DNA of 64,000 nt from Naegleria gruberi (lineage: Eukaryota): the NCBI GenBank assembly GCA_000004985.1, contig GG738901.1, one strand, 5' to 3'. Of this stretch, positions 3,900-63,751 are shown in pieces. The first letter of the stretch is position 1. Each line of letters starts with the position of its first letter. The position numbers and the translations under genes are program-made. The notes under the pieces were generated by a model. It did no database searches. It had not been told where the DNA came from and saw only the letters and a list, made by a program, of their open reading frames with translations.

Positions 3900-4779
3900 T
3901 CTATTTTTTTTGCTTGTTGTTGATGAATTGTTCCTTATTGTTGTTTTGTGGTTCTATTGCAAGATATATGTGTTGGTGTGTTGTGTGGTGTTTGTTGTAT
4001 CGTTAAGAATTTTTTTGATTGGTTGAACAATTGGCGCCATGTTTAATTTCCGTGTTTTGCCTTTTAGGAACAATAAAATTTGCTGTTTAAGAACAAAAAA
4101 TTGCAAATTAAGATGGATTTCTAAATTGTTCACAAATATGTACTTTACTGTGCTGGATGTAATGGAAAATAATGCTACTCAAATTAAGATATTAGACTTC
4201 CTTAAAAGTCAAAAAGACTAAGACACAAATTACAGTTTCAAGCGAGGAGCAGGGGTAGAAATCTTACTTTTAATTTAGGGTTCATCAAAAAATTGCGAAA
4301 TAATTGGGGTAAACAACATTATTTATTTATTTATTTCTTCTTTCGTGCTCTACTAGAGTTTCTCTTTACTGCTTCTTCAAATTGTGAATTCTTTGGTCCA
4401 CGTTTTTGTTTCTATAGCGGTTCTTCTTGTTCCAATTCCTTCTCTTGTTAAGGCTATGGAATTATCGTTGCTGAGAAAGTCTTCTTCACTTTTTCTTTGT
4501 TATGATGGGGTGAAGTACAAAATAATTGTATCGTGCTGGTTGTTGTGGATTAATCTTCCTTTCTATTTACAAAAGTGTATAACCAATTACCATCTCTACT
4601 AAGGTAATATATCCTTTAGTAATTTCTTGATGGAAATAGCTCTTGGCATTCATGAAGCGAAGGTAAGGTGTTTTATTGTAGGTGCAGTGGAAACATTTGG
4701 GAGTGCCTGCTTTTGTTTTGGTAGAGGATTTGGTTCCTTGAGGTTTTTTTAAATATTTACAACAAAGAACACAGCAGAA

Positions 4780-26393: not shown

Positions 26394-28076
26394 TCATCTG
26401 ATACAATCAAGTACATAATGTAGGAAATAATAAATATCAGCGAAGGTGTACTTGATTTGATCATTTCATAAAGAACTTTTCTATTCTTAAGATTAGAATA
26501 AATCACCATAAGGAATTGTCTAGGAGCAATTTGACCCTTGAATTTTCCCAACTTGTCATTGATCTGAATTTGCCTCACATCGCTTACACTAAATCCAAAT
26601 GCTGTCAAAATCCAATTAATCAAGGAAATGTATTTTGTTGCCTGAACTGTTTTTAACTCTGAAACTAAATCTGTTTTTGGATCATACTTCATGACAGTAT
26701 ATTGTCCATTGAAAAAGTTTGAAGGTTGTAACCAAATTGAAGGAGCATTTTGAATACTCTTTGTATGTTTTCTCTTTTGAGCTTCCATGAAAAAATAATA
26801 ACGACTATAAACTTCTGACATCATGGCTCTCTTCCAAATGAAAATGAGTCCCAAACAGAATAGACCAATCCAGAAAACATTGCTTTGTTTCCATCTATTC
26901 AATCTACTGGCAGTCAACCAAGAATAGAAAAATACAATGAGTGTAAAGTCCCAACTCGTTACAATACCAAATGAATATAATTCTGATGAAATTGGATACA
27001 AGAGTGCAGTACCAAAATTAGTCATGAAATCCAACAATAAATGAGAACTCAAGCAACATGCAGATAATGTTGTACAATGTGTAAAGCTGTTAAATCCATG
27101 CAAGCCCAACACTTTCTGAACTCCAAAACCAATGAGTGGGGATAATAATAAATTAATAGGCAGAGAATGTGAAATAGTTCGCCTAAATGTAAGACTATTC
27201 TTGTCACGTCTTTCAAGCATGGCTTTCCAATTTCTTCTTGCGTTAGTAACTGTTGGTTGAGTATCCTCAGAATCAGAATCATATTGAGATAAATTACTAG
27301 AGCTACCAGCAGGAGTCTGTGCTGCATTAAGTGAAGAACTACTGAAACTTGAAGTCATTCCACCACCAGAAGATTCCTCCTGTTTCTTATTTGTTAATGA
27401 AATAAAAAGCTCCCACAATCTATGAATTCTGTCAATCATTCTCGAAAATCCCTTGAAGAATGACAAGAAAAACGAAATGATGAATAATGCAATATCTACA
27501 TCAGGTAAATTAGCCAAAATCATTCCAACTACGTAATACTTTTGTTCAAAAGTCAAATGGGAGAAGAATCGTTTAATTCTCCTCAGAAATTTAAACATAT
27601 TCGTGCTCAACACTTTAAAGAATTGTTTGAGTGATGTTTTTCTCAATAATTGTATCTTATCCTTTCCCATCATTAATTTACTTGCTCTATAGAGTTTCAA
27701 TTATAATATTTGGATCATTATTTTCCAATCAAGGCAATACATTCCATTGTCATCATTATCCGATAACAATATTTAAATAACAATTAATAGTAAATTTAAA
27801 TAATAATATTGATGATAATAATAATAATATTATAAATTAAATTGATGATCATCAAACATACCCATTAGCAGCCATTACTCCTCCATCCACAAGTGATTTT
27901 CCAATCAAGTAGAGAAATTGTTGTTGATCGGAGGTGTGTTTCAAATGTTCACTGTGTTTGACCATTGGACTCTCAGGAATCATTCGAAATCTCTTCCCTT
28001 TATCCGATACAAAATTCCTCTCAAACAAGTATCTCGAAATGACATAACCAAATATTGAGTGAATATCTGTTAACAT
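26390..28076 (-). CDS. Multi-pass membrane protein related to YdjM/DUF457 membrane-bound metal-dependent hydrolases (2 exons)
   Basis: Exons are 28076-27862 and 27686-26390, with a 175-nt intron (GTATGT...CTATAG, phase 2) and a total of 1512 nt. Family-like strings are MLTDIHSIFGYVISRYLF, FRRTISHSLPINLLL and SSHLLLDFMTNFGTALLYPIS. The stop codon overlaps the convergent gene's stop, sharing CTAA at 26390-26393. Confidence 0.65.
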
Positions 28077-31269: not shown

Positions 31270-32250
31270 TTACAGAACAAATCTTGGTACGTTCTCATTT
31301 TCCTGTGCTAAATAATTTATATTATCAATGTTATTCATTGATAACATGTTTCCAATATTAAATTGAGTAAGGTCTGTATTCTGAGAGAGGAGAAATGTCA
31401 GAATAGTTTCAGAATCATTTGGTCCTGTATATTCTGTGAAATAATCAGAGAAGGGATACTTTTCCAATTTTTCCTTAAAGAGATCAAGCTTGGTAAAAAC
31501 TATTGAAACATCCGCTGGTATATATTCTGAATAATTTACAAATTCACTAAAATTTTGTAAAGCCAACCAAAGACAATTAGCTCCAGAAATTGAGTCTGTT
31601 AAATTGTAATCTGCAAGGGAAATTAAATAAATTACTCGTGTCATGGTATTGTCAAAATGAGAAATCCACTTTCGTTTCTCATTTCTTTGTGGACTAGGAT
31701 CAATTAGTTTACTTGTTTCAAATGAAAATTCATAAATTGATGACTTGGAATGAGGTATTTTAGTTTGTAAAAGATCATGAATTGTAAAATCTGCATTGAT
31801 TGCTTGTAATTTGGCAATGAAATTCTCAGAAAAAAAGTATCGAATATTTTCCATATATCTGAAATGATGTGAAATGAATTCCAATTCCTCACTCTTTAGC
31901 ATTGTTAAATATTTCATAAATTCGATCATGCTTGATGTGAAAACTCCACTTTTCCTAGCTTTTTTAATTTCCTCATTTAAATTACTGAATTTAAAATCGA
32001 CTATTTTGAATGTTTGCCAACAGATGTCCAAACATCGAATGACATACTTTCGAATATGCAATTCTCTTTCTTCCGCATTCATCATGCTATTAGTTTCTTT
32101 CGATAGATGATAAATTCCATGTCGAAAGGTTGACTTTCCACTTGAACATGCTCCTAGAATTAGTATTTGTTTTTTGCATGGTGTAATTCTGCGTCTCAAA
32201 GCAGTATCAATAGCTTGACTGTGAAGTTTCTGCTGCTTTCGTTTACTCAT
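31270..32250 (-). CDS. Heterotrimeric G-protein alpha subunit-like protein with degenerate GTPase motifs
   Basis: A 326-aa ORF starts at ATG after an A-run. It aligns to G-alpha-i across ILILGACSSGKSTF (P-loop kept), IDPSPQRNEKRKWISHFD (versus DVGGQRSERKKWIHCFE), VIYLISLADYNL and SIVFTKLDLFKEKLEKYPFSDYFTEYTG (versus IILFLNKKDLFEEKI...YPEYAG). Confidence 0.85.
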   Translation of the reverse strand: MSKRKQQKLHSQAIDTALRRRITPCKKQILILGACSSGKSTFRHGIYHLSKETNSMMNAEERELHIRKYVIRCLDICWQTFKIVDFKFSNLNEEIKKARKSGVFTSSMIEFMKYLTMLKSEELEFISHHFRYMENIRYFFSENFIAKLQAINADFTIHDLLQTKIPHSKSSIYEFSFETSKLIDPSPQRNEKRKWISHFDNTMTRVIYLISLADYNLTDSISGANCLWLALQNFSEFVNYSEYIPADVSIVFTKLDLFKEKLEKYPFSDYFTEYTGPNDSETILTFLLSQNTDLTQFNIGNMLSMNNIDNINYLAQENENVPRFVL

Positions 32251-32623: not shown

Positions 32624-35600
32624 ATGTTGAACAATAAATCTGAGCGAAGTGGTGATGAAAAAGAGGAGGATCTTGTGATTCAGAATCCCTCTAACTGTAA
32701 ATGTAATAATCACAACAATGGTAAGCAGCATCTTGAAGGGACAAATTTAATGCAACAACCACAACCACTGTTGGATGATGATGTGAATGATATTCTTCAA
32801 TTATTAACAATAGAAAGTTGCAGTGGAGGTTGTAGCTTTGATTGTCTTAAATTCGAAGAGAAGGAAGCAGTCGAAGAGGATACCTGTAATCCAATGTCGC
32901 AACAACATCTTCCTTCCGATATCAAATCGGAACCAATTCTCCTACTGCTTACTGATAAGAAGGCAACATCAACAATGGATCACAACGTAAGTTATCATCA
33001 AACATGTAAATTAACGTGCCATTTGGGCGATTTGACTAATTCAGAAGTCGTATGCATCTAACAAACAAGGCGACAATTTTCATCATGAAAAAAGAACAGA
33101 CAATATCATCAACAAGAAGAACAAGGCTTCCTCATCATTAGGCAGTGCTTTTAAAGAAGATTTTGTAAATTTTGTTTCAGAATCCACAAGTTCCTCTTAC
33201 ATTCCGCAACAGCCATTCACAACATTATATTCGAAAAGAATGAAGGACGAAGAGATGGTGGAGAATAATCAATCTACTGTTAATGAAGATGGAATCAAGA
33301 CATCATCTGAAGCTAAACCAACACAATTTAACCACTCCTCACATCATCAAAGGCCTCATCATATTAACAAGGGTCTCGGAGAAGAACAACAATACAAATT
33401 TCCTTCATCTATTACACCACTTTCACTGGCCAATATTCATGCCAATGCATCGACTAACTTACTGCTAACTTCATCAACATTATTTAATTCTTCAAGTGAA
33501 TCACATGGTGGTGGAACCATTTCGAGAAGCTCCTCCAATACTTCAATGGATAGCTCCTCCTATTCACTCTTGAATAATCACCATCATCTAACCACATCTT
33601 CCTCACCCTCTGATGGTTTTCACTCAACTCTAAAATCCCTAGAAAATGTTCTCCCTCCATTCTTTACTCCATGCGTGCCACCTCATGCATCATTCAATTA
33701 CTATTCAGAACATTATTGGGGAGAACATCCCTTATCACTAACCTCCTTCTCTCCAATTCTTCATTATGAAAAGAAGTCATCTCTAACGATTATTTGTCGA
33801 TACACACCACAACAAACTAGGAATTCTCCAAGAAGGGAGAGACCTTCCTCTCAAAAAGAATTAATAGAGAATGAGATTTATTGTCTGAAAGTTTCACTGG
33901 ACAAACCATCCATTCCAAAGCTGGAAAGGGATGCAGAAATTTCTCGATTCTTGACCAATGAATTTTCTCAAGTGTTGGATCCAGCACAACAGGTTATTGT
34001 CAGTACTAAGGCCTATTTGTCTGATTATTTTATTCTCGTGAGGGAGTTTATTGATTGTGTTTCGTTGAGATCATTTATTGATAGATCGAAAACATATGCT
34101 AGAGCAGAACCAATTACTGATGAGAATTTTGAAACCTTAACAGATGATACTGTAACACTTCTCAATGAAGAACAACGAGTGAAAGAAAACATTACAATAT
34201 TGGAAAGTAATTTAACACTTGCTATTTCTATTTGTATGAGTGTTGCTCAACTGCATCACTCAAGAGTTTGTCATGCTGACATTAGGCCAGAAAATATAAT
34301 TGTAGAAGGACCTAAATGCAATATAAGATTGATTGATTTTGGAAAGAGTACATTCCTCCCTTTGGAGCATCCATTTTTATATACCGATAAAATTATTGGT
34401 AGTCAAATGTATTGTGCTCCAGAGGCAACAGGAAAGATTCCAAAACCAATAGGTTTCCACACTGATATATATTCACTTGGATTTGTTCTCTTTGAGTTAT
34501 TTTCCAAAGAACATCCATTTACCAAGTTTAGGACATTAGATTTCGTATTTCAACATTTGACTCAACAGCCAGAGTCCTTGTTTCAAAATCTAGCGAGAAG
34601 GTCTTTTATATCAGCCAATGAAGGAAACCTATTCACAGCTGCTACTAAAGCAATTTCAAGACTAATTACCAAAGCAATTCAAAAATCTATTGAGAAACGT
34701 TATTTGAGTATTTTTGGATTGAAACGAGATTTGGTCTACATACAGAATGCTATTCAACTAGAAGATATGGAAGCTCTTGAAAATTTTCAAGCTGGTATGA
34801 ATGATGTTCAAACAACTTTATCCATACCTTATGGTGTATATGGTAGAGAGGAAATTTTCAAAAAATTGGAACTGAAACTTGAAAATATGATGGAATCTAG
34901 TGAGCCAACGATTGTCCTTCTGGGGGGCTATAGTGGCATAGGTAAATCATGTATTGTTAAGGAGTTTAGGACAAGAAGTAAAACAGCAATACAATTCTTT
35001 GAGGCAAAATACGATCAACATATGAATGTACCTTACTATGCCATTATTTCCATATGTAAACAAATTATTGGCGACGTTCTTGGAGAATCTGAATCAGTGA
35101 TTAAGGATTTCAGATTCCAACTTGGTACACTTATCAATTCAGATCAATTAGAAATGTTGAGTGATGCAATTCCTGACATGTCATATTTATTTACAACTAA
35201 TGCAACCAAAAAGCATACCTCCCCATCAATGGGAGATCAGAATGGAGAGCGTATGAAGCTCTTTTCACAAGGAAGTAAGTAATATTTTGAATTTAACATT
35301 ATAACAATATTATATTGCTCAGTTATTCATCTCTTTAGTGTTTATACTCATTTAAAGAAAAAGAGGTTATGCATTTTCTTGGATGACTTGCAATGGACTG
35401 ATTTTGATAGCATGAAGCTATTGAAGGAAATTCTTGGAACTGGTTCTTGTGATACTGTTCCTCTTTTAATTATTGGAGCATATAGAAATAACGAAGTGGG
35501 AAAGGACCATCCTCTATTTTACTTTTTAGAAAATCTCAAACTTAAAGTGAACATTGAAGAAATTGAAGTTGTTGAGTTGACAGAAGATCAATCTAACATG

Positions 35601-38600
35601 ATTGTCTCAGAGTCTTTAAGGAAAAATAGAGCTGAAACAGAAGAACTAACCAAAATACTCTTCTCTAGGACGAATGGAAACCCCTTCTTTTTAAAGCAGT
35701 TATTGGCTGGTTTATTTAAGGACGGATCTATTTATTTCGATACTCAAACAGATACTATTACATGGGATAAAAAGAAAATAGAAAATGCAGAATACTCTGA
35801 AAATGTTATTGACTATCTCCTTGGACATTTGGAAAAATTACCAAAACAAACACAAGATATTCTTGCATTTGCTTCTTGCTTTGGAAATAAGTTTTCCAAT
35901 GAAGACATGCTCCACCTACTCAATCAGCAACAAGAAGAAAAGATAGACTTGATGCAACTTAAAGAAAGATTGAACTATGCGGTGAAGGAGGGATGGATTT
36001 CAAATATCAATTCTGGTAATTTACGATTTAATCATGATAGACTCCAACAAGCTGCTTATGAATCACTGCCTTTGAATGAAAGGTTGAGAATTCACTATAC
36101 CTATGGTAAGCAGCTTCTCAAAAAAGCAGAAGAAGATGATTCTTTGGAGGAACGTTTATTTGATATAGTTGTACAGTTAAATCACAAACATAATGATCCT
36201 GCTTTCTTGGAGAATAGAGATGAGAGAAGATTACTCATTGACCTCAATAATAGAGCTGCAAAGAAGGCTTTGGAAACATCATCTACAGATAAAGCCATTG
36301 GCTTTGTTTATATTGCAAGGCAAATTCTAGAACACGAACCAGACTGTTGGAGTGAAGAAACTTATAAGTTGGCTTTTGAGAGTTTACTAATTGTTGGTAA
36401 TTGTAACTATTCTGTAAATATAGAATTGGCAACCTCTCTATTCATGGAAGCTATTCAAAAAGCTCAAAACAAGACAGATCTTTATGAGGCATGCAACCAT
36501 GGATTGATGGCCTATCTTTCACAAGGAAAATATGAAGATGTGTTTAAAATTTTGACTGATCATGTATTTACTACATATGAAGAGTTGAATTTCCTTACTC
36601 AGGAGCATACTGTTGAATCCTTGACAACATGGATACTTAACAAGATGAAATACATGAAAGAACATGTGCTCGTTAATTTTACTCAAAAATCTGACATTCT
36701 CAATTTGCCAGATATTGATGATTTGGAAAAGTGGCATCTTATTTGTTTGCTCACTCAATCCTGTCCTGCTGTTTTTCATATGAATAACTCACTCAGCAAA
36801 CACTACTTTATGATTATGATATTAATATCGTCTGATATAGTTTTAAATAATGGCATTACTCCTCTTTCCCCATTGTTAATTTCAGTCTTTGCATGGTCTT
36901 GGTGTAATTTTGAGTTTTATCCTCAGATGAACATGTTCTTAGAGGCAGGATTAGAGATGGAAAAGACTAGATTCAGGAATGAGCATGAATTGGCAAGTTG
37001 CACATTGATGAAGTTGATGAGTTATTACTTTTCGCCAACAATTAACCCTCTTGAGGTGTGGAATATATCCGAGGAAGCCTTCTTATTGTCTGTGAAATCA
37101 AAGAACAAACACTATGGCGGTTTCTCTATTCTGTGGTATCCATTCCATCACTTATTCTATAGCCACGGAGATGTAAAGACTTCTATTGGATTGAGCTTGA
37201 ATTCAATTGAGATTTTCAAGAGAAATGGAAATGTTATGTTGATGGATGCCAGTAAAATGATACTGGAATTGAAATATGTTCTTTCAGGAGATGTAGACCA
37301 TTACCTGCCAACGTATGTAAGCCAAGTGAAGGAATATCCATTCTTTAGACAAATGCACTACTCGTTCAAGGGAATTTCACTCTATTTCCAAAATGATATT
37401 GAAAAATCTTTCAAGTGTATGGAAAAATCGTATGATTTTAGAGAAGACTCTGTTGGTATGTGTTCAAGCTGGATTGATTTAATCTTCCTAGGTTTAATCT
37501 CAGCTATCTTTTTGAGAAGTGCTCAAGAAAAGATTGAAAAAGCCCAAGAAATACTGAAATATTCTATAGAAAGATTGGAAATGATTTCCCAAGCTAATTC
37601 TTCTGTTTTTCTTGCTCCTTTGGAGTTCATAAGAGCCGAGACATTGTACTCAGAATATTGTAGAACAGGTGTCGAAAATACTAGAAAAATCATTTCTCAC
37701 TACAGAAAGAGTTATATTATGGCTGAAAAGGAAAGAAACACCTTTTTAGCTAGGCTGATTAATTTGAGAACAGGAGAGTTTTACAACAGTCTAGGTATGG
37801 ATGATGGTATTAGTGGAAACTACTTCCTTAGAGCTATGGAATCTTTTGAACAGTTTGGTGCTTCCATCGTTGTTGATTATATTTTGGAGAATTATTCAGG
37901 TCACATCGATGGCTATTCATCATTTAGTAATAGAAATCCTGAACAAGTATTCTCTAACACTTCTCTATCTGATGAAACAACAGATCACTCTCTTGCTGGA
38001 GTAACAAAGAGCAGAATTTCTGAATCAACAGAATTGGATTTTAGAGAGATTTTCATTTCAATTCTGCCAATTCTTTCAGAACAAACGTTATCACCAAGAT
38101 GTTGTTTGATTTTGAAGAGAGATTCAACAGTTTATGTAGATGCCGAATTTAATGCAGACCTGAATTCTATTGAAGCACTTTCGTCTACCAAACAATTCGA
38201 AAATAGTGATTTGGACAAATTTTCAGATTTATTCCCTCTCAAGATGATTCACAGAACTCTAAGATCCAGAACAGAGCAACAACTCGTATGGAATGACAAT
38301 GAGAAAGAGTATTACTTTGTGAAGAATGTAGTGGCCTCTGCTTTATCTATTCCTATCATGAAGAAAAAGACAGTCATAGGTATGCTTTTTATTATTATTT
38401 TATTTATATTATTTAATGTATTAAGGTTGTATATACTTGGAAAATAAGGAAACGAAGGATGTATTCACAACTGAAAAAATTAACCTTGCCAAACTTATCA
38501 TCTCGATCAGTTTGGACAATGCTGGAATTTTCACATCTATTAACAAATCCTATGCTAGGTTTTTACCTGCTGAATTCTTAAAGTTGCTTGGAAAGAGTCA

Positions 38601-39423
38601 CGTAACTAAGGTAAGGTTGGGCGATGCAGTTTCTAGAGAAATGACAGTGCTCTTCAGTGATATTTATGGATTTACAGAGATTATGGAGGGACTTTCTGCA
38701 AAGGATGGCTTTGCTTTTATTAATCTACTATTGAAGAGTATTGCACCTCCAATTTCAAGAAACTCTGGATTTATTGACAAGTTTGTTGGTGATGGAATAT
38801 TGGCATTGTTTATTGAACCGCAAGGAGCTGTCACTGCAGCTTTAGAAATGATTTCAGAATTGGAAGTTTTCAATAGTAGAAATAATACCAATGTAAAGTT
38901 GGGAGTTGGTTTGCATCATGGTATTGTTCAACTTGGTACGATTGGATATGAGCAACGATTGGATGCTACTGTTATTTCAGATACTGTGAACACAGCTAGC
39001 AGATGTGAATCTCTCACAAGAACTTTTCATTCACATATTCTAGTTACTAAACCAGTTATGGATGCTGTTACAGTGCCACACAGTGTGATAAGTACCGAGT
39101 TGGGTAAATTCATGCTGAAAGGAAAACACATACCTCATCAAATTTACAATATCGCTTCTAAATCATGGAAAGGAAGTGGTAGTGCTAAAGAATTCGCTTT
39201 ACTAAGCAAAGTTATTGATCTCTTCTCCAGGAGTGAATTTACCGAATCATTTGCCCTCGCAGAAACAATTCTCAAGAATACAAAGAACAATACCATTATA
39301 GCTGCATGCAACATGTATAAGGAAGCATCAACATTATACGGATCAGTTGTTTTACCAAGTGAATGGCAAGGTGAAATTCGGTTGACCAAGGATGGAGAAG
39401 TCAGAGAGTACTTTTCAAAATAA
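32624..39423 (+). CDS. Multidomain signalling protein: Ser/Thr kinase-like domain, AAA/STAND-type P-loop NTPase, helical/TPR-like region, GAF-like domain, class III adenylyl/guanylyl cyclase (4 exons, 2,215 aa)
   Basis: Exons are 32624-32986, 33045-35274, 35323-38379 and 38426-39423. The introns are 58, 48 and 46 nt (GTAAGT, GTAAGT and GTATGC ... AG), and the total is 6648 nt. Kinase strings are VCHADIRPENIIV, IDFGKS and MYCAPE. The P-loop is LLGGYSGIGKSCIV and the Walker B is LCIFLDDLQWTD. The GAF end, restored by splicing, is TVIGCIYLENKETKDVFTTEKINLAKLIISISLDNA. Cyclase strings are MTVLFSDIYGFTE, IDKFVGDGILALF and ISDTVNTASRCES. Confidence 0.85.
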
Positions 39424-39582: not shown

Positions 39583-42039
39583 ATGAAAAAACGACATTCA
39601 ACCTTTTCCACCACAATCAATCATCGAGATTTGATTAAATCATCTAATTTTAATTCATTATCTACTAGTAATATTCAATCATCATCATCACCAATATTGA
39701 GCACTACTTCTAGAAAAGGCTTCCGAGAACGACCACTCATCAAATTCATATTAAAACAACGTTCCAAACGATTGCAACAACAAGGCTCTAGTGAGTTTGC
39801 TGGTGCGGAAGTGGAAATTTTGAAGGCTTGTTGGAGAAAAATAGAGGAAGAGGAGATGAAGGACTATCGAGAAAATCTCTCGAATCGATTGGGGTTTTAT
39901 TTTGATGATGAGGAATTGTTGGCCATGTTCGGAAATCAATTGATGAAGGATGAAGAGGAACTACAGCAGAGGACGACAATGGATACTACCAACACTGAAC
40001 CAAGTTCGGCTGGTGGTGCTACTCTTGACAATTCTTCACTGAAGAGTGGTGACAGTGCTCGTTCATTGACAAGTTTCGGATCTGACTCGAAACTAAATTC
40101 GCCAATTAGTCCCAACCTCGACAAGAAGCATTTGCAGTCAACTTCATCGACCAAAAGCTCCACTTCATTTGCATCCTTCTCTGGTGCACCATCATCACTC
40201 ACACCAAGCCCAAACATTGAGGAGAACAAAAATCTTTCCTACCTCTACGATATTCATACTTTTCCTAGCAAGCTGAATCTGATACCAACCATGCATTATA
40301 ATGTGTTGGATGTTGTTGAGTTGTCCTCTGTACAGCAAATTGTAAATATAACAAGTCCTTCTTCGGAGATTGGGATACTTAAAGATTGTACAAATGATTC
40401 TTCTCCTACTGTAAATATTGAATCAACCACTTTTAGTCTCGAGATTTTAGATAGTTTTATTACTGTTGATTCTTTTGAAGATTTTTCAAATCCTTCATAT
40501 AATCCACTCAATATTAGACATTTATATTGTGATTATTGGTCCAACAAACTAGAATTCAAACAAAGGATCAGTAAATCTTCTCTTACTTCAAACAATAAGA
40601 AGGAAAATGAAAAATCAAAAAACTATATACCATTTGAAGAATTGGAAAAATGTAGAAATTGTACAGAACTCAAATTGAACAATAACAAGATTAGATCTCT
40701 AGATTCTAAACATTTTACCAATTTTGCACACTTGACAGAATTGAATCTATCTTCGAATAGAATGTCTAAAGCAAGACTGCCTGAGGATATTTTCTCACAT
40801 ATGCCACATTTGCAGAGGCTTTCTCTCGATTATATGGGTCTTAAGACTCTACCAAAATCAATTAACAAATTGGTAGAGCTTACCTACCTTTCACTTTCCT
40901 TTAACAAATTGAACACTTTCAACTTGCTACATGGAAAAGACAGACACTTGAATGATTTTTGGCCAAAATTGACCAATTTGGAGTACTTGAATTTGTCTGG
41001 AAATAGATTGAATAGATTTCCTTCAGAAATTTGTAATTGCAAATCATTGGAATTTTTGAGTTTGTCCAACAATAGAATAATTAACGAGATACCAAAGGAA
41101 ATTGAAAATCTCAAAAAATTAGCAATACTCTTCTTGAATGGAAACAAAGTTACTGCTCTTGATATTAATAGAAATTTGGAATTTTTAGAGAATTTGACCC
41201 ATTTGGAATTGGGTCACAATCCTAATATCCATGTGGTTCCACCTCCTGTTTACAATTTAACCAAATTAGAATCACTCTGTTTGAGCCATCTAACCATTAG
41301 TCATTTATCGGATGATATTGGAAAATTAAGAAATTTGACTCACTTGGATTTGTATGGCTCCAAACTAACTGGTCTTCCAAAGGGTATTTCACAGCTTATC
41401 AACCTTAGGAATTTGGATATGCGATATTGCAGAGGTATCAAGGAGTTCCCTATTGAATTGTTTGGTCAAAAAGTTTCAAGTAGCACTATCACTACTACCT
41501 CTCCAATGAAATCCCTTACTAGATTGAGTCTTAGCTATACAATGATAGAGAGCATTCCTGAGGATATTTCCTCTCTCCAGAGTTTACAAGCACTTTTGGT
41601 GAATGACTGTCCCTTGCTCGAAGAAATTAAGGGTATTGACAAGCTTGTCAATCTTGTAGAGTTTGACATCAGTCGTTGCATCTCCCTTGTTGAGCCTCCT
41701 TCTGATGTGTGTGAGAGAGGTCTTGCCCACATTAGAGGATATCTGAAAGAAAAGGACGATGGACCTTCTATTTTTTTAAAGTTTATTGGATCAGTATTTG
41801 GTGGAAATACCTCAAATAATTCCTCCACCAACAAGAAGAAACTACCTTCACCAATAGGCACAGAAAACAACCTCAAAGTGGAACACAATGAATTACTTGT
41901 TGCCTCACCAGTACCAAGCATTAATTCTGGAGATGATGATGGTGATAGTGATTCTGATGATGAGATTGGCGCATCTAAAAAGAAGAAACCAAGTCCAAGT
42001 GGCAGTACTGTCAAGTCATTATTTTCCTTTTGGAAATAA
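39583..42039 (+). CDS. Leucine-rich repeat protein (typical/SDS22-like LRRs, SHOC2-like array) with low-complexity N-terminus
   Basis: An 818-aa ORF starts at ATG after an A-run. About 15 repeats of the form LxxLxLxxNxLxxLPxxI run from ~residue 360. The tail is acidic and basic. Confidence 0.85.
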   Translation: MKKRHSTFSTTINHRDLIKSSNFNSLSTSNIQSSSSPILSTTSRKGFRERPLIKFILKQRSKRLQQQGSSEFAGAEVEILKACWRKIEEEEMKDYRENLSNRLGFYFDDEELLAMFGNQLMKDEEELQQRTTMDTTNTEPSSAGGATLDNSSLKSGDSARSLTSFGSDSKLNSPISPNLDKKHLQSTSSTKSSTSFASFSGAPSSLTPSPNIEENKNLSYLYDIHTFPSKLNLIPTMHYNVLDVVELSSVQQIVNITSPSSEIGILKDCTNDSSPTVNIESTTFSLEILDSFITVDSFEDFSNPSYNPLNIRHLYCDYWSNKLEFKQRISKSSLTSNNKKENEKSKNYIPFEELEKCRNCTELKLNNNKIRSLDSKHFTNFAHLTELNLSSNRMSKARLPEDIFSHMPHLQRLSLDYMGLKTLPKSINKLVELTYLSLSFNKLNTFNLLHGKDRHLNDFWPKLTNLEYLNLSGNRLNRFPSEICNCKSLEFLSLSNNRIINEIPKEIENLKKLAILFLNGNKVTALDINRNLEFLENLTHLELGHNPNIHVVPPPVYNLTKLESLCLSHLTISHLSDDIGKLRNLTHLDLYGSKLTGLPKGISQLINLRNLDMRYCRGIKEFPIELFGQKVSSSTITTTSPMKSLTRLSLSYTMIESIPEDISSLQSLQALLVNDCPLLEEIKGIDKLVNLVEFDISRCISLVEPPSDVCERGLAHIRGYLKEKDDGPSIFLKFIGSVFGGNTSNNSSTNKKKLPSPIGTENNLKVEHNELLVASPVPSINSGDDDGDSDSDDEIGASKKKKPSPSGSTVKSLFSFWK

Positions 42040-46660: not shown

Positions 46661-48030
46661 TCAGCGTCTCTTGACTCTTATTTTCTTCTTCTTTGTAGTA
46701 GGTACATTATATTCATCGTCATCCTCTTTCATTAGTAAGGGAACTTCATCTTTCAAAGATTCTGCAACAATATTACTGAAAGATTTCTCAAACTGAACAA
46801 TAGATTCAGGTTGTTTTGGTACAGAGGATGACAAAGAAGGAGCCAAACTAGCTTCTTCTTTCGGTTCTTCTTCTGGTGTGGGTTTAGCAGAGATGCATTC
46901 CTTACATATATTGAATTTAATATCTAGTGGATAATCAAATACAAGTTGAGAAACAGCTTTGCTGATAGTAGTTTCTTTAAAATCTAAATTAGAAGGATTG
47001 TGTTTCTGGGTGAAAAATATTGGACTAGTGTCAAGTTGTTTACAATTCAAATCTTGTAAGGTAGATTCAATTTGATGTTCTGCAGTGATAAGGGATGTAA
47101 TATTCCTGAAATGAATGACTTTTTCAAAAGCATTTTTGATTCCTTGCATGTTTTCAATGAGACCTGACATGGTTGAGTATTGATCTTGAACAATTGCCAT
47201 TCTCTCTTGATGTTCTGATTGGCTTTTGTCAAGAATTTCTTTTCTTTTGTCTTCCACTTGTGCCAAATAGTTGTCAATCATAGTATTAACCCTCATTTCG
47301 TAAGTTTCTTGATTACTGACTAGTTTAGTTTGGAGAGAGCCAATCTTTTCCAATGCAACATACAAGAATTCAATATCTTGATCAACTTGCTCAATCTTGT
47401 TAGACATTCCTGCCTTAGCCTCTTCCATATGTTCATCAATTGGGACACATGTATGATTACTATGATTAGTTGATAAAGAACACAAATGACAAACTTATGT
47501 CTCTTACATTTTCCAACAGTTAGAATTGTTCCAAGTGGAGCTTTTTTATGAGAAGCAAAGAACTTGGGAGCATGAATGGATGTGAAACATTCCTCACAGA
47601 ATCTACTATTACAATCCTCACATTCAACTTGAACAATGTTAGTTTCACAATTGGCACAAGTTTCTCCCTTCTCCCTCTCCATCATATAATTTTCTACAGT
47701 ACTCTTGAGATCGTAATTAATAGGAAAGACACTTGGTACATCTTCAGAATGATTGACTTTACATTCCTTGTTGCAAGAGGGACAATTGAAACAAATTCCT
47801 TCCTTCTTGTTACTTTGATCACTTGTTGTTCCATACAATTTGTTGATCTTTGTTTGATTTCCCAGCACAGGAGCTTGAAGAAATGGTTCTTTGAGTTTTA
47901 ACTTTTTAAAATTGATATTTGCCATAATGCATCGGGTGCACATTGAATGACCACAAGGTAAAACTCTTGGATCTTGAAGAAGTTCAAAGCAAAACTTGCA
48001 TGAAAGTGATTCCTCGTCAATTACTAACAT
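46661..48030 (-). CDS. RING / B-box / coiled-coil (TRIM-like) protein; reading frame broken once inside the second B-box
   Basis: The RING is CKFCFELLQDPRVLPCGHSMCTRCI...CPSC. B-box 1 is CANCETNIVQVECEDCNSRFCEECFTSIHAPKFFASH. Then CKRHK (frame A) abuts VCHLCSLSTNHSNHTCVPIDEH (frame B, which opens at 47494), and a long coiled coil follows. ORFs 47320-48030 and 46661-47485 overlap in different frames, and no intron can fit. Confidence 0.7.
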
Positions 48031-57239: not shown

Positions 57240-58526
57240 CTAATTGCTTGTAATTTCATTAATCTTACCAACAAAGAGAACACTCTGAGTTGGAACGTGA
57301 TGCAAAATAAAAGCAAAAGGTCTGTCAGCAATGAATTCATAAACCTCCTCAGATGCAGCCCTTCTCTTTCGTTTACAAGCTACGGCAGTTGCAGCACTTG
57401 CCACTGTTCCTGACTCATCTACTTGAATGCATGCCTTGTGAATTATTTGACTGACACATACACCATCAACTTGTGGATTGGAGAGCATATTGGAAAAATC
57501 AGCATTGGTTGGACTAAACAATCTATTGATTTCGAATGGTTTCTTGGCTATAGTTGGAATGATATTGTCAAATTGCTTTTCAAATTTGAATTTTGGAATT
57601 TGAATTCTGTTCATTTTGACTGATTCACTTGGATTGAGTCGACTAATATCGGTCAACTTGGATTGAAGCCACTTGTTAAATTCTGTTTCGTTTTCTTCAT
57701 CAATCTCTAAATCATCATTTGGTTTAATAAATGTCATACAATATTCTTCATCTGTGTATGGTAATTGTAAAATTTGATAATCATCCATTTCTTCATAGAG
57801 GAATTTTGACTTGCAATCTTCCAAACTCATCATTTGACAGTTGCATTCTCCATTCAAGGTGTTAAATGATTTTTCAATAGTTCTATTCTTGTTAAATTGA
57901 TGTTTCCACTTTCCATTAAAGTAAATTGCATTTACAATGACCATAAGTGTGTCTGAATCCAATTTAGATATTAAATTCTTGATATTATTCTTAGTATTGG
58001 ATGCAACCCATGCATTGATATTCTTCACTTCTATATTGGCCATACCCTTAAAGTTTGCCAATTGAGTTTGAGAATCAAATTGGTCAACCAACTCATTAAT
58101 AAATTCATTCTTAACACCAAGAGATTTTTCCAGATAAATTCTATTGGCAATTGATAAAACGCTCTCATTTTGAACAATATTCTTAATCATACCCGAATAT
58201 TGCTTCAATTCACTTTCCTTCCATTTTTGGAATTGCTCAACTGCATTTTCCATTTTACAACTATTAAAACTTTCTCTCAAAAACAAGCCATCAATCATTT
58301 CCCTCAATGTTTCTCCACCTGTTCCCAACATGCAATTCATCATTGCAATATAAATCGAAAATGGTGAAATGATCAAATTTCCATTTCCATTTTCCTGCAC
58401 AAATTGACCAAACAATGCAGAGGAAAATTCATTCTGGGCCAACAACATGTTATTCTGTGCTTGTTTCTTATTATTGGAAGCATTGTTTCTAGTACTTGAT
58501 AATTTCTTACTGTTTACCTTGACCAT
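57240..58526 (-). CDS. Serpin (intracellular type) with polybasic reactive-centre loop
   Basis: A 428-aa ORF. Serpin strings are SPFSIYIAMMNCMLGTGGET, NAIYFNGKWKHQFNKNRT and FIADRPFAFILHHVPTQSVLFVGKI. The hinge and RCL read ESGTVASAATAVACKRKRRAAS. The N-terminus is hydrophilic, with no signal peptide. Confidence 0.9.
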   Translation of the reverse strand: MVKVNSKKLSSTRNNASNNKKQAQNNMLLAQNEFSSALFGQFVQENGNGNLIISPFSIYIAMMNCMLGTGGETLREMIDGLFLRESFNSCKMENAVEQFQKWKESELKQYSGMIKNIVQNESVLSIANRIYLEKSLGVKNEFINELVDQFDSQTQLANFKGMANIEVKNINAWVASNTKNNIKNLISKLDSDTLMVIVNAIYFNGKWKHQFNKNRTIEKSFNTLNGECNCQMMSLEDCKSKFLYEEMDDYQILQLPYTDEEYCMTFIKPNDDLEIDEENETEFNKWLQSKLTDISRLNPSESVKMNRIQIPKFKFEKQFDNIIPTIAKKPFEINRLFSPTNADFSNMLSNPQVDGVCVSQIIHKACIQVDESGTVASAATAVACKRKRRAASEEVYEFIADRPFAFILHHVPTQSVLFVGKINEITSN

Positions 58527-58823: not shown

Positions 58824-59372
58824 TTAATCCATTTTGATTCGTTTACTGCTGCTGGAAGAAGAAACACAATTAGATGAAGAAGAATTGTTCATTGATTCGA
58901 AACTATTCTTACGAGGTCGTCCCCTTGGTCGTTTCGGAAGAGTTTTCTTCAATTCTTCTTCTTCCTTAATAGATTCCAGAGTCGATACGATGAAGAATAC
59001 ATTATTAGGTTTGCTAATGTTGCTCGGAGTAGTATTTACATGCGGAGGATAAGAGGAGTTGATCTTTGGAGTGGTGGTGGAGTTATAATTGAGGGTTTTC
59101 ATTGAATGCTTCTTGTTGGAAGTATGATTGGATGACTTCATCTCGATTAGTTTGGATGGTTGTAATTTGCATTCTTCTACCTTCTCAAACACAATATTAT
59201 TATTAGCATAGGTATTATTCGTAGTATTATTAGTGGAAGTATTATTCACTGGACAATAATTGTTATCATCGTTTTCCAAGCACGGAAGGAATGAATCATC
59301 ATTAGAGTTCTGTAACAGCAGATGTAACAAGAATAAAAGTGTCTGTTCGTGTATTGTATTGGTTGGAAGCAT
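58824..59372 (-). CDS. Hypothetical low-complexity protein with AT-hook
   Basis: A 182-aa ORF with an ATG start. It has an AT-hook KRPRGRPRKN and Asn/Thr/Ser-rich tracts. Confidence 0.55.
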   Translation of the reverse strand: MLPTNTIHEQTLLFLLHLLLQNSNDDSFLPCLENDDNNYCPVNNTSTNNTTNNTYANNNIVFEKVEECKLQPSKLIEMKSSNHTSNKKHSMKTLNYNSTTTPKINSSYPPHVNTTPSNISKPNNVFFIVSTLESIKEEEELKKTLPKRPRGRPRKNSFESMNNSSSSNCVSSSSSSKRIKMD

Positions 59373-59816
59373 TCTTTTTGAGCTGTTTAATCTACAACAC
59401 TATGTATACGTGTATTAATAGCAAAATAATAAGATCCTCTACTATGGTAATGGTTTACGACAACTCAGGAAATATGTCTCCACCTTATTTGGAATATCTC
59501 TGTGAATAAGTCCATATTTCTCAAAACTCAGAATTATGAAAGATGCACAGTATTAAGTAATGACAGTCTCAGTTATGGTAAATGAAAATGGTTGATTGTT
59601 ATCCAAATTTTTGAGATTATATATAAGACTTTTTATGGGAACGTTGTATATTATTTTCAGCATTGATTCTCATTACATGAACTTCCACTGAAATAACCAC
59701 AGGAATATCTCCAATTCGAATGAACTGAGAGGGAGATTTGAAAGTGTAATCCTCAATCTTGTCTGCAATGAAAGTTTCACCTTAAGGTAAACTATGAGCT
59801 GAAGTGATCATGATGG

Positions 59817-60782
59817 TTACCCTCCACGCAATCTAAATATCATGGTCAATTTAGAATCGCTGTTAATCTCCAATTCTTTCAATGTTTTTTCATCATCTTC
59901 CTCTGGAATTGGTTTTGACTTGTGAACAATTCTGACACCATCCAAATTTCCCCATGCCTCTACTACCTGGAGACGAATCATTCTGAAACTATCTTCTGGA
60001 TTCACATAAACTTTCAAATCTCTTCCAGCCATTGATTTAATGTGCAATTCCATAGAGCTGGCCTTTGTGGAAAATATGGAAATTTTCTTATCATATAACA
60101 AGTCTTGTCCCACAAATCGAAATGCATTAGGATTTTGATTCAGGGCAGTTAAATTAATTTCTCTATCATTCTTGAGTGATTTTCCAATATATTCCAATGA
60201 TAAACCATACTGTTTCACAATTTCCAACATGAATTCTCTATTATTCAATAAATCTTGATTGTGAACATATCTGATAGCTCTTGGATTTCGTTTCAGAGCA
60301 GCCCTACAAATTTCCTCATCTTCCCTAATGTCCAAATCCATATCTTTTAACAAGATCCAATTTTCCTGAACTAATTCCTTGACAAATTTTCGATCTCTTC
60401 TCAATGTCTTTCCAATATATCCACTATTCATAAAATCATCCTTCGAAACGGCTTTCAAAATAATCTCCCTATCATTTCTCAACGTTTCATGAATAATTTT
60501 CAATGCATCACTTCCATGTTTACTGACCACAGCAAGGGCAACATCTCTATCCAAACCAAAATCGAATGGTTTTCTACTCGGAACAAATGGAACATTCGAG
60601 TGTCTAATCTGCTTTAAAATCATTAATTTTGAATAGAGCAAATTTGTTCGTTCTTGTGATTTCTTCATCATTTCATTCCGTAACATTTGTTGCAAATTAA
60701 ATTCAGAAGAATAATTATTTGTATTTGTCGATTCATCATGGTGATGACTTTGAAAATCGATGAGAATAATTTTTGTGGGCAT
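59817..60782 (-). CDS. DUF4116-repeat protein with C-terminal ubiquitin-like domain ending RLRGG-stop
   Basis: A 321-aa ORF. The N-terminal repeats are NDREIILKAVSKD, DEEICRAALKRNPRAIRYV, NREFMLEIVKQYGLSLEYIGKSLKNDREINLTALNQNPNAFRFV. The last 78 aa, MELHIKSMAGRDLKVYVNPEDSFRMIRLQVVEAWG...TLKELEINSDSKLTMIFRLRGG*, align along the whole of ubiquitin. Confidence 0.85.
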   Translation of the reverse strand: MPTKIILIDFQSHHHDESTNTNNYSSEFNLQQMLRNEMMKKSQERTNLLYSKLMILKQIRHSNVPFVPSRKPFDFGLDRDVALAVVSKHGSDALKIIHETLRNDREIILKAVSKDDFMNSGYIGKTLRRDRKFVKELVQENWILLKDMDLDIREDEEICRAALKRNPRAIRYVHNQDLLNNREFMLEIVKQYGLSLEYIGKSLKNDREINLTALNQNPNAFRFVGQDLLYDKKISIFSTKASSMELHIKSMAGRDLKVYVNPEDSFRMIRLQVVEAWGNLDGVRIVHKSKPIPEEDDEKTLKELEINSDSKLTMIFRLRGG

Positions 60783-61037: not shown

Positions 61038-61916
61038 TTAATTTAGTTTAATAAAACTAGGTGGAACACTTGGAAAGTGTTTAATATATTCAATTCCTCC
61101 TCCATTAGCTATTTCGTCCCTATGAATATCGAGATATTTCAAATTCTTCATTTCACTAATCAATTTTGCACTATCAGCTTTCAAACGATTATCGAAAATA
61201 TTGAGAGCTGTCAGATTGTTCATTTCACAAATGTGTTTAGCTCCGTTGTGAGTTATATCACTGCAGGCAATGTCGAGTTTAGTCAACTGATTTAGTTCAC
61301 TTAAATATTTGGCTCCTTCTTTCTCAATACTATTTCTGTGAATACTGAGATCGGTCAATTGTTTCAATTTGCAAATTGATTTGACTCCCTCGACATCCAT
61401 TCTATTACAAGCAATATCAAGATATGTTAAATTTTCAAGTTGACTAATATATTCAGCTCCTTCATTTCCAATATTATTGTAAATAATATTGAGCTCTCTC
61501 AATTGTTTCAATTTACCAATCTCCTTGGCACCTTTTACTCCAAGTTTGTTCATTCCTATATCAAGCTTTGTCAATTGACTCATCTTTTGTAAAGCATCCA
61601 AAACATTGTCCAAAACTCCATCTTCCAACAATGTGTTTAATTGAAATTTCGCACCAATAACATTTTCCAAAAATTCACTTTGCATCATTAGTCTACTATT
61701 TTCTAAAGTGATACTTTGGGTAAAGTGCAAATTAATTTTGGTGAATTGTTTAATAATTTGCTTCCACTGTTTAGAAATTAAAACACCACTCCATAGTAGA
61801 AATTCATGTGGAAGATATAAAATTATTTCTGAACAAATATCATCGGGAAAGTTGAAATTATTCAGAGTTTTGATGCTTGTGGTTGTGGTGGTGGTGCTTG
61901 TTGTGTGATTAATCAT
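61038..61916 (-). CDS. F-box-like + RNI-type LRR protein
   Basis: The tracked ORF starts at a TTG (62084). The first ATG (61916) follows an A-run and removes the overlap with the upstream ORF. It has an F-box-like string DICSEIILYLPHEFLLWSGVLISKQWKQII and about 8 repeats of 24-25 residues with xGxEGAKxIS. Confidence 0.8.
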   Translation of the reverse strand: MINHTTSTTTTTTSIKTLNNFNFPDDICSEIILYLPHEFLLWSGVLISKQWKQIIKQFTKINLHFTQSITLENSRLMMQSEFLENVIGAKFQLNTLLEDGVLDNVLDALQKMSQLTKLDIGMNKLGVKGAKEIGKLKQLRELNIIYNNIGNEGAEYISQLENLTYLDIACNRMDVEGVKSICKLKQLTDLSIHRNSIEKEGAKYLSELNQLTKLDIACSDITHNGAKHICEMNNLTALNIFDNRLKADSAKLISEMKNLKYLDIHRDEIANGGGIEYIKHFPSVPPSFIKLN

Positions 61917-62061
61917 TTTTTTCTTGTTAAATTCATTAGAGTTTAATGAAACCTTCTTGGTTTTGGAGATTTTTTGGTGTTTCTTTTTGGTTGACTTGTT
62001 AAAAGTGGTAACACTCAATATTTCTATAAATAATTTGAGTGTGTTTGTAATTATCTCGAGA

Positions 62062-62493
62062 TTATTTGTTGTTGAATAGCTCAATAATTTCCTTTACCTG
62101 GGTTGGGTAGAACTTGGATTCAAATGTCATTCCAGTGCATTGAATAATTTGTGATCTGTGACATGGACCAAAGAGTTTGAGAATGCATTTGGCAAAATCA
62201 TTGCTAGTTGTCTTCTTTTTATCATCGTCTAGTAGTGTCCAATTAATATCCAAAATTTCCAAAATTAATTTGGAAATACTCGCATTTTCACCATCCAATT
62301 TGAGGATTACTTTCTTGGATGGATAAGAATAAGTGAACAACATTTCTAATTTGAAAGAAAGCTCAGATAAAGTACCATTTGCCATCTCAAACATGGCATT
62401 GGCAAATATCTTCTCCTCATGAATATATTCTGTAAATCCAATGCTGTAAGCTTCATGAAGTGTGAAATACTTGAGCTTGGAAGATGAATTCAT
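62062..62493 (-). CDS. 143-aa ORF, probably the 3' part of the upstream gene (62453-63751) rather than an independent gene
   Basis: It has an ATG at 62493 without an A-run context. It overlaps the upstream ORF by 41 nt in another frame, and its own frame opens only 10 codons before the ATG. Confidence 0.4.
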   Translation of the reverse strand: MNSSSKLKYFTLHEAYSIGFTEYIHEEKIFANAMFEMANGTLSELSFKLEMLFTYSYPSKKVILKLDGENASISKLILEILDINWTLLDDDKKKTTSNDFAKCILKLFGPCHRSQIIQCTGMTFESKFYPTQVKEIIELFNNK

Positions 62494-63751
62494 TGATGGA
62501 AATGTCGTAACTTGGCGATTGAATCACTGAATCGAACGAGAACAAATTCTGAGATTTTCTTGCCGAGTGTTTAAGGATTTCCCTCCTAATGTAATGGAAA
62601 TATTCCATTCGTTGAGAGTGTCTCAAATCAGATTGAATAATTGGAGTTAGAATTTCCTCCTCTAAATATTTCAATCCTTCCTTTACAGTATCTGATTCAG
62701 ATTTCAATCTATTATCATCCTCTTCGTCCTCTTCATATGATATTTCTTCTATGGATCCCAATTCCTTAATCATACTCTCCATGACATTACTATTATTGTT
62801 AGCAAACGGTGCCAGACAGTTATATGTTTTGGAGCCAGCACAAATCATTAAAAAATTGAGGAAATCTTCCCAATTCCACATGATAGGAATATCCAACTCT
62901 TTCATTACTTCCGTAATGGCTTCAGAGTCAATTTTTCCAATAGCTTCATAAGAATGGTAATTGTTTTGATATTGAACTAGAATCTTCTCTTCATTATTCG
63001 AATCTCTCACCGTCAATTCATAAAATCTCTCCAGATTATAGGTTCTAGTATTCGGTCCATAAACAAAATGTTGAGAAAATATCATAAATTCCCTAATATC
63101 ATTCTCTTGTTGATTTGATTTTTTCAAAATCTTCAACTCTGCTCTTCCTCCCTGAGCTTGTGAAAAAATTCCACCAATAAATGAATTAAACGAAACTCTT
63201 CCACTCTTGAACAAGTCGCAATTTTCCATAATAACGAAGAACTCTGCAAAATGTTCATCATTTTCAAACAAATAATCAAAATACGAATCATCATTAGTAC
63301 AAATCATGCAATTTCTAATTTCGGCATTGATTTTCAATAGGCAACCATGAAAAAATTCACAACTTTTATCCTCTAGATCTATCTTGATTTTTGATAATCT
63401 ATTCATGAAGAATAATGGATCGGTGGATGAAGATGAAATGTGCAATTCTTCAGAAATTGCTTGATTGACCAATCGGAAAGTTAAAACCTCATGCAGTGGT
63501 AGAAAGGAATAAATATTGAACAAGACAGCACCATTTAGCCATGTTGAATGATGTGGTAATGTGATGCCAGATTTTTCTTGTTTAAATTCTTCCATTTTTT
63601 TCAAAATCAAATTGTAATTTAAATGTACTTTAATGGAAGTGCCATCTCCATATTGAAATGGTTGGTTGCTGGCATAATGACGAGCAAAGTAGGGCTGATT
63701 CCTTGGAAAATGTCTTTTCATCAATAATTTTGCTATTAGAATCTGATTCAT
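62453..63751 (-). CDS. Hypothetical protein with F-box-like motif
   Basis: A 432-aa ORF with an ATG start. It contains the string VLFNIYSFLPLHEVLTFRLVNQAISEEL and an acidic stretch EEISYEEDEEDD. Confidence 0.7.
   Translation of the reverse strand: MNQILIAKLLMKRHFPRNQPYFARHYASNQPFQYGDGTSIKVHLNYNLILKKMEEFKQEKSGITLPHHSTWLNGAVLFNIYSFLPLHEVLTFRLVNQAISEELHISSSSTDPLFFMNRLSKIKIDLEDKSCEFFHGCLLKINAEIRNCMICTNDDSYFDYLFENDEHFAEFFVIMENCDLFKSGRVSFNSFIGGIFSQAQGGRAELKILKKSNQQENDIREFMIFSQHFVYGPNTRTYNLERFYELTVRDSNNEEKILVQYQNNYHSYEAIGKIDSEAITEVMKELDIPIMWNWEDFLNFLMICAGSKTYNCLAPFANNNSNVMESMIKELGSIEEISYEEDEEDDNRLKSESDTVKEGLKYLEEEILTPIIQSDLRHSQRMEYFHYIRREILKHSARKSQNLFSFDSVIQSPSYDISINEFIFQAQVFHTS

Follow-up and report, generated by a model that had tools for sequence, protein, structure and literature searches.

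Does a ubiquitin-like domain (Ubl) at the very end of a longer protein, with Gly-Gly as its last two residues, allow that protein to be conjugated whole to other proteins? The question is raised by NAEGRDRAFT_72975, a gene on the minus strand of a 64,000-nucleotide stretch of Naegleria gruberi DNA (contig GG738901.1, assembly GCA_000004985.1; "the window" below is this whole stretch), whose 321-residue product joins helical DUF4116 repeats to a C-terminal Ubl ending in RLRGG. The gene is real and lineage-specific, belonging to a set of three N. gruberi paralogs, and the reading we favour, at a probability of roughly 0.4, is that the whole protein is a ready-made conjugatable Ubl carrying an alpha-solenoid as cargo. 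The parts of the gene are as follows, where pLDDT (predicted local distance difference test) is the per-residue confidence of an AlphaFold2 model.

59817..60782 (-): complete coding sequence including the stop, 321 aa, NAEGRDRAFT_72975 (list of open reading frames and sequence)
60669..60782 (-): residues 1-38, His/Asn/Thr-rich N-terminus; residues 1-19 have pLDDT <50, and in the paralog P0002 the first residue corresponds to Met39
60552..60668 (-): residues 39-77, conserved long helix and HSNVPFxPSxKPFDF motif, not DUF4116 (alignment, model)
60078..60551 (-): residues 78-235, DUF4116 (PF13475) helical repeats (Pfam, model, paralog identity)
60054..60077 (-): residues 236-243, short linker SIFSTKAS between repeats and Ubl (sequence)
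59820..60053 (-): residues 244-321, ubiquitin-like domain with a predicted beta-grasp fold, Met244 corresponding to ubiquitin Met1 and Gly321 to Gly76
59820..59834 (-): residues 317-321, RLRGG tail, equivalent to ubiquitin 72-76 (translation, paralog alignment)
59817..59819 (-): TAA stop directly after Gly321 (sequence; the paralog models also end at GG)
59373..59816 (-): 3' flank, 444 bp to the ATG of the next gene (splice enumeration)

The coding sequence is a single uninterrupted ATG-to-TAA open reading frame (ORF) of 321 codons, and its translation is identical, at 100% over the full length, to the N. gruberi protein XP_002672034 / EFC39290 / UniProt D2VVD3 (P0001 below), which the public record describes only as a "predicted protein". 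Because that public model is the same as the plain ORF, it contains no introns. The window DNA is AT-rich (31-37% GC), and chance cannot account for an ORF of 321 codons in DNA of 31-33% GC that has two domain matches and is accompanied by two paralogs. An initial annotation, made from the DNA letters, had placed the stop immediately after ...MIFRLRGG, and this is what the sequence holds: the frame ends ...KLTMIFRLRGG, and TAA follows Gly321 without a gap.

The same annotation had claimed that the last 78 residues align along all of ubiquitin, and here too it was right. In a phmmer comparison with the sequences of the PDB, residues 244-321 align end to end with ubiquitin 1-76 (E ~2e-5, to 76-aa mono-ubiquitin chains), and NEDD8 matches the domain equally well (E 2.3e-5). 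In a five-way alignment the Ubl is 28% identical to human ubiquitin, with a 1-residue deletion after Gly35 and a 3-residue insertion after Leu50, and a tblastn search of the window with human ubiquitin returned nothing at E<=1. The two Pfam families that had been named for this protein fared differently. PF13475 is unambiguous (E 7.9e-40; 134.6 bits against a gathering cut-off of 24.9), whereas PF00240, the ubiquitin family, gives 15.5 bits (E 0.015), below its gathering score of 25.4. The paralog P0002 scores 24.8 bits with PF00240, just under that cut-off, and the paralog P0085 has no match at E<=0.01; precomputed annotation with a newer version of the model gives PF00240 to P0002 only. A beta-grasp fold, on which the initial annotation had staked its proposal, is present in the predicted structure. 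The AlphaFold2 model, built on 21 sequences and with a mean pLDDT of 81.9, contains at residues 244-316 a beta-beta-alpha-beta-beta-(3-10)-beta unit (pLDDT ~72-85) whose predicted topology superposes on that of ubiquitin. The Ubl is thus a diverged, ubiquitin-derived beta-grasp domain whose similarity to ubiquitin is real but weak.

In ubiquitin, Arg72 and the hydrophobic patch formed by residues 8, 44 and 70 are recognised by Uba1-type activating enzymes (E1), and NEDD8 has Ala at the position equivalent to Arg72. The corresponding residues of the three Naegleria paralogs appear, from their alignment, to be kept in kind: Leu8 corresponds to M/I/L, Ile44 to V/I/I and Val70 to I/V/L, all of which stay hydrophobic, Arg72 is R/R/R, Lys48 is invariant, and Arg42 is R/R/V. 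The last four residues of the modelled protein have pLDDT <50, which points to a flexible tail. All three paralogs end in the free C-terminal Gly-Gly that characterises type I modifiers, a feature known here from the genomic ORF and gene models. Integral (type II) Ubl proteins expose no C-terminal glycine and so differ from all three; they share with the window protein an embedded Ubl, which here is preceded by 243 residues in the same ORF.

How widely is this arrangement found? Searches of 5.8 billion and 1.84 billion proteins returned two more N. gruberi proteins built in the same way, and the three genes lie on different scaffolds and are therefore separate loci.

P0001: NAEGRDRAFT_72975, 321 aa, ending ...FRLRGG
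P0002: NAEGRDRAFT_51273, 285 aa, ending ...VFRLVGG
P0085: NAEGRDRAFT_63234, 171 aa (model probably truncated), ending ...YRFYGG

The three align without frameshifts or internal stops, at 51-63% identity over their full lengths. Identity between paralogs is 62-71% in the DUF4116 part and 40-54% in the Ubl, of which 24 of 78 columns are invariant. These include Arg317 (ubiquitin Arg72), Gly320 and Gly321, and the stop falls at the same position in 3/3. By rough arithmetic, the chance that these three tail columns would all be invariant is ~0.03 if columns are exchangeable. Without a use, a flexible tail should drift at a rate above the average, so the retention of R..GG-stop provides moderate, though not decisive, evidence, from the alignment, that the C-terminus is under selection; likewise, a GG-stop in two diverged paralogs makes a functional C-terminus likelier than an accident.

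Beyond N. gruberi, the search for proteins of the same architecture came back empty. When the Ubl was compared by HMMER with the 1.84 billion representatives, the best 150 matches were all polyubiquitin-like except P0002 and P0085, the only two that matched through a single domain; this list is swamped by polyubiquitins because the scores of their repeats add up, and an ortholog with less than ~40% identity could rank lower. A profile of the three Ubls gave no match at E<=1 among the 5.8 billion proteins, but it also missed its three source proteins, which are present in that set, and this negative therefore carries no weight. A full-length profile of the three proteins recovered 32 proteins at E<=0.01, and all but the three paralogs are without a Ubl, having DUF4116 alone or with other partners. 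The only match in Naegleria fowleri is P0178, a 154-aa DUF4116 protein (locus L001, VFQX01000068.1); no Ubl coding sequence was found within 4 kb on either side of its gene, and we therefore rejected P0178 as an ortholog of the fusion. The fusion thus looks specific to N. gruberi; no DUF4116-Ubl protein was found elsewhere in these searches, which could miss unannotated genes and distant orthologs. As a separate observation, tblastn places a cluster of DUF4116-coding sequence on both strands of the N. fowleri locus at ~2500-4300 (2526-3401 (-) and 3595-4285 (+)); it spans three called genes, two of which carry no Pfam annotation in the record.

What would such a Ubl carry? To our knowledge, DUF4116 is a widespread repeat family without a known role. 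The initial annotation had described a DUF4116-repeat N-terminus of 240 residues, and the family assignment stands, although the repeats occupy only residues ~78-235 and not residues 1-77. The PF13475 match falls in three stretches, the best at residues 181-228, and the paralogs belong to the family as well (117.3 and 78.1 bits). Within this part a sub-repeat of ~25 residues (L-x-N/R-D-R-E-hydrophobic...) can be followed, and residues 79-235 are modelled as stacked helix pairs with pLDDT 88-98, a predicted alpha-solenoid. DUF4116 has also been modelled as an alpha-solenoid elsewhere (PMC8078820).

Between the solenoid and the Ubl, the linker keeps the pattern I-S-x-F-S in the three paralogs, is modelled with moderate confidence, and contains neither GG nor another ubiquitin-type cleavage site. 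Upstream of the repeats, residues 39-77 have no Pfam match but share 64% identity with P0002, positions 61-75 hold a series of invariant residues, and the model places a helix at residues 21-61. Residues 1-38 have no equivalent in P0002. They are probably disordered, judging by the model, and may lie upstream of the true start, which would then be Met38 or Met39.

In other organisms DUF4116 is found beside an N-terminal F-box (P0165, P0171), and its partner domains also include a C-terminal diphthamide-synthase domain (PF01902; partners surveyed in P0161, P0165, P0166 and P0171). By analogy, the F-box fusions suggest that DUF4116 may act as a substrate receptor in SCF (Skp1-Cullin-F-box) ligases. 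From the solenoid modelling and the position behind F-box domains, it is a reasonable inference that the DUF4116 solenoid may be a target-binding or scaffold module. The literature we searched contains no paper that links DUF4116 functionally to ubiquitin, and none that names the locus tags or accessions of the three genes.

Taken together, the protein appears to have the features of a conjugatable Ubl at the level of sequence and predicted fold. E1 enzymes adenylate ubiquitin-like folds whose free and flexible end has the form ...R-x-x-G-G. In the reading that we favour, the Gly-Gly of the Ubl would be the physical C-terminus of the primary translation product, and no precursor processing would be required, as for FAT10, ATG12 and URM1. 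An E1, which we propose to be Uba1-type because the Arg72 equivalent is kept, would adenylate the free C-terminal glycine; thioesters would form with E1 and then with an E2 conjugating enzyme; and the whole ~37 kDa protein would be joined by an isopeptide bond to lysines of its targets. Conjugation would in this way link the target covalently to the DUF4116 solenoid, which is probably a platform for protein binding. E1 activation, conjugation and the role of the solenoid are the parts of this reading that we infer. Activation and conjugation have precedents. Conjugation requires that the C-terminus of the beta-grasp domain be free (PMC1949818), and when ubiquitin with its GG intact is fused to the C-terminus of another protein, the endogenous machinery charges the fusion and attaches it to proteins of the cell (PMC9703124, section 2.2.2). 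GFP-Ub is used on purpose in this way, and the toxicity of PCNA-Ub requires the GG (PMC9703124); a large N-terminal cargo should therefore be no bar to activation. The position of DUF4116 behind F-box domains would also be consistent with a target-binding module that the ubiquitin system already uses.

A more specific version of this idea makes the solenoid a built-in substrate receptor, so that the E2-charged glycine of the protein's own Ubl would move to a nearby target lysine. The choice of target would then be made by the modifier itself rather than by an E3 ligase, the product would be a permanent covalent complex of adaptor and target, and the three paralogs would be three modifiers with different target specificities. 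We regard this elaboration as improbable.

Several observations weigh against conjugation of the whole protein. The PF00240 score is below the gathering cut-off; the identity of the three Ubls to ubiquitin is only 22-28%; and the tail varies at positions 73 and 74 (L/L/F and R/V/Y). The Ubl is the fastest-evolving part of the family, which would suit a relaxed, possibly vestigial domain no less than a modifier that has few partners. For P0085, an AlphaFold2 prediction of the Ubl from a 3-sequence alignment reached a pLDDT of 66.6 and gave no significant structural match. Because the family was found in N. gruberi only, its conservation rests on three paralogs, and their GG-stop is read from the genomic ORF and gene models alone. 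No dedicated E1, E2 or deubiquitinase is encoded near the gene, which weighs little since eukaryotic gene order says little. Finally, most Ubl domains within larger proteins act as adaptors and are not themselves conjugated (PMC1949818).

This last point also speaks for the main rival, namely that these are ordinary ubiquitin-domain proteins in which the C-terminal Ubl is a non-covalent interaction module and the GG and stop were inherited and are not used for conjugation. Its partners could be proteasome receptors, proteins with UBA or UIM domains, or the protein's own solenoid, and the GG and stop could stem from a captured ubiquitin gene, for instance from the last unit of a ubiquitin gene together with its stop. 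The low identity to ubiquitin and the faster evolution of the Ubl than of the solenoid suit such a role, and the hydrophobic-patch equivalents, which would bind ubiquitin receptors, are kept. Moreover, the best-conserved stretch of the Ubl is not the tail but EDDEKTLKELEINSxSKL, whose conservation suggests a paralog-specific binding surface. An unused tail, however, should be the first part to drift or change length, and R..GG and the exact stop have been kept while the Ubl cores are 38-52% identical. In OASL and SF3A1, which are known examples of proteins with an integral Ubl, the Ubl does not terminate precisely at GG. A free GG on a Ubl fold also tends to be charged by E1 (PMC9703124), and selection should have removed it if this were unwanted. 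The initial annotation had itself named a built-in tag for interaction or degradation as its alternative, and on balance we consider an interaction module almost as likely as a conjugatable modifier.

A second rival holds that the GG terminus is functionless, either because the fusion is lineage-specific and decaying or neutral, or because the 3' end has been modelled wrongly. The restriction of the family to N. gruberi in our searches would suit a neutral fusion, a literature search on the three locus tags and accessions found no expression data, and possible neutrality has been discussed for the ubiquitin fusions of protists (PMC11354881). Against neutrality, three intact ORFs at 51-63% full-length identity argue for purifying selection. 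As to the 3' end, a splice from a GT that overlaps the stop, or from one further upstream, would alter the C-terminus. A possible donor, GG|GTAACC, does overlap the stop, with its GT directly after the last Gly codon, and an acceptor-like ttgcag lies 58 nt downstream; used as a pair, they would yield ...RLRGGQD*. The 3' flank further contains a stop-free stretch of 54 codons (GETFIADKIEDYTFKSPSQFIRIGDIPVV...), which has no Pfam match. Many GT/AG pairs are formally possible in this region, but we discarded splicing past the GG because none of them yields a conserved or Pfam-recognisable extension. Splice-site habits of Naegleria were sought in the neighbouring genes, where no clear intron was seen. 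The public model of the gene is the plain ORF, all three models stop at GG, and a tail removed by splicing would give no reason for R..GG-stop to be conserved. The RGGQD* variant, if it were made, would still be a precursor of the classical ubiquitin type, which deubiquitinases would trim to GG. We therefore think it unlikely that the terminus is an artefact or a relic.

Third, the protein could be a precursor from which a free Ubl of ~78 aa, arising either from translation that starts internally at Met244 or from a proteolytic cut in the linker, would be the sole modifier. Met244 aligns exactly with ubiquitin Met1, but both paralogs have Ile at this position; internal initiation is thus not conserved, a separate small Ubl is unlikely, and we rejected initiation at Met244 on this ground. 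Deubiquitinases cut after, and not before, a ubiquitin domain. The linker lacks GG or a known site for ubiquitin proteases, and its ISxFS motif is conserved. Release of a free Ubl is accordingly very improbable. Least credible of all is that the terminal Gly-Gly is a C-end degron that shortens the life of the protein and not a conjugation site: C-terminal di-Gly is read by CRL2-KLHDC2 in animals, but reports of the KLHDC2 clade come chiefly from animals and amoebozoans and not from Heterolobosea (PMC10591846), and a degron has no need for a 78-residue beta-grasp domain in register with ubiquitin.

The surroundings of the gene give no sign of linkage to the ubiquitin system: none of its neighbours (serpin, AT-hook, leucine-rich-repeat proteins) belongs to it, and an ORF with RING and B-box domains is 12 kb away. 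The immediate neighbours are these.

57240-58526 (-): serpin, full-length (E 3.7e-83)
58824-59372 (-): low-complexity Asn/Ser-rich protein with one AT-hook
61038-62084 (-): LRR_6 (RNI-type) leucine-rich-repeat protein

The window as a whole carries typical eukaryotic genes, among them the serpin, a 14-3-3 protein, a G-alpha subunit, PARG, kinases and many leucine-rich-repeat proteins, of which further examples lie at 8324-9808 and 39583-42039. Several other loci deserve a remark. A 436-aa ORF at 26390-27700 (-) matches YdjM (PF04307, E 2e-14), a bacterial inner-membrane family that is unusual in a eukaryote, and may reflect horizontal transfer. The G-alpha homolog at 31270-32250 (-) (E 3.9e-44) ends at profile position 302/333, without the usual receptor-coupling C-terminus, and no downstream exon for it is evident. 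At 33240-39423 (+), three adjacent ORFs encode Pkinase and AAA_16 domains (33240-35282), 1022 residues without a Pfam match (35379-38447) and an adenylate/guanylate cyclase domain (38437-39423); the last overlaps the 1022-aa ORF by 11 nt, and the three may be one very large signalling gene. The ORF with a RING finger and B-box (47320-48030) overlaps a 274-aa ORF without a Pfam match (46661-47485), and together they (46661-48030 (-)) may represent one TRIM-like E3 gene that an intron interrupts, which implies no link to the Ubl gene. Finally, two ORFs of 143 and 432 aa without Pfam matches, at 62062-62493 and 62453-63751 (-), share 41 nt, which they read in different frames; a single gene interrupted by a small intron or a frameshift could explain this, as could two genes lying very close together, and no obvious intron is seen in the sequence of their junction.

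How does the Naegleria protein compare with known systems? With few exceptions, ubiquitin-like modifiers are either small proteins that stand alone or di-Ubls. In the classical precursors (polyubiquitin, Ub-L40, Ub-S27a) a near-invariant N-terminal ubiquitin is released by cleavage after its GG, whereas the Naegleria Ubl is C-terminal, 28% identical to ubiquitin, and followed by nothing after the GG. ISG15 and FAT10 are two-domain modifiers with an N-terminal Ubl and a C-terminal Ubl ending in GG. Their N-terminal domain is a second Ubl of ~80 aa, in contrast to the ~240-aa region with a predicted DUF4116 alpha-solenoid described here; they come from vertebrates, and their E1, E2 and E3 enzymes are known, whereas no cognate enzyme emerged among the genes near the Naegleria locus; and no specific sequence relationship connects them beyond the ubiquitin family. 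Among integral C-terminal Ubls that are not conjugated, SF3A1 continues past its RGG and OASL lacks the motif, unlike the Naegleria chain, whose last residues are GG in all three paralogs. The repeat region of an F-box protein normally serves as its substrate receptor. The F-box-DUF4116 proteins thus place the same repeat family beside a domain of the ubiquitin system; they would recruit an SCF ligase, however, and the Naegleria proteins carry the modifier-like domain itself.

Natural counterparts are known from other protists. PUBL, the plastid ubiquitin-like protein of Toxoplasma, is likewise a strongly diverged ubiquitin at the C-terminus of a longer protein, and its N-terminal extension is not cut off at the Ubl boundary, as we propose for the Naegleria protein (PMC5487736). 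Its C-terminal RGG is essential for function, its divergence has been attributed to relaxed constraint with few partners, and its conjugates, like those proposed here, have not been directly observed (PMC5487736). The PUBL extension differs in being an organelle-targeting leader, served by an organelle-specific machinery derived from endoplasmic-reticulum-associated degradation; that of the Naegleria protein is predicted to be a folded repeat domain. C-terminal ubiquitin fusions without a known function also occur in Guillardia, Bigelowiella, dinoflagellates and other algae (Sibbald et al. 2019, PMC6332867; also PMC11354881). As in Naegleria, ubiquitin there follows an unrelated partner, but these fusions were found as ubiquitin-encoding genes, a contrast with the diverged Naegleria Ubls, and the partners differ (a transmembrane protein, IMP), with no DUF4116 and no paralog family with a maintained GG-stop reported (PMC6332867).

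The combination of DUF4116 with a Ubl, of which the initial annotation knew no description, does appear to be undescribed; the wider claim of novelty was overstated, given ISG15 and FAT10, the algal C-terminal fusions (PMC6332867), PUBL (PMC5487736) and engineered X-Ub proteins (PMC9703124). Should no conjugation of the Naegleria protein be found, it would be one more lineage-specific Ubl-domain protein of limited interest. If conjugation does occur, this would be a natural case in which a GG-terminated Ubl carries a 240-residue non-Ubl region and is kept as a small gene family, and it would offer a first functional handle on DUF4116. GFP-Ub and PCNA-Ub have the identical topology of cargo, ubiquitin and free GG, and their GG-dependent attachment is a mechanistic proof of principle, although they are artificial, use authentic ubiquitin, and are conjugated promiscuously and sometimes with toxic effect (PMC9703124). 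Conjugation of the Naegleria protein would mean that the ubiquitin machinery can graft whole adaptor domains onto targets, as has so far been seen only in engineered constructs of the GFP-Ub type.

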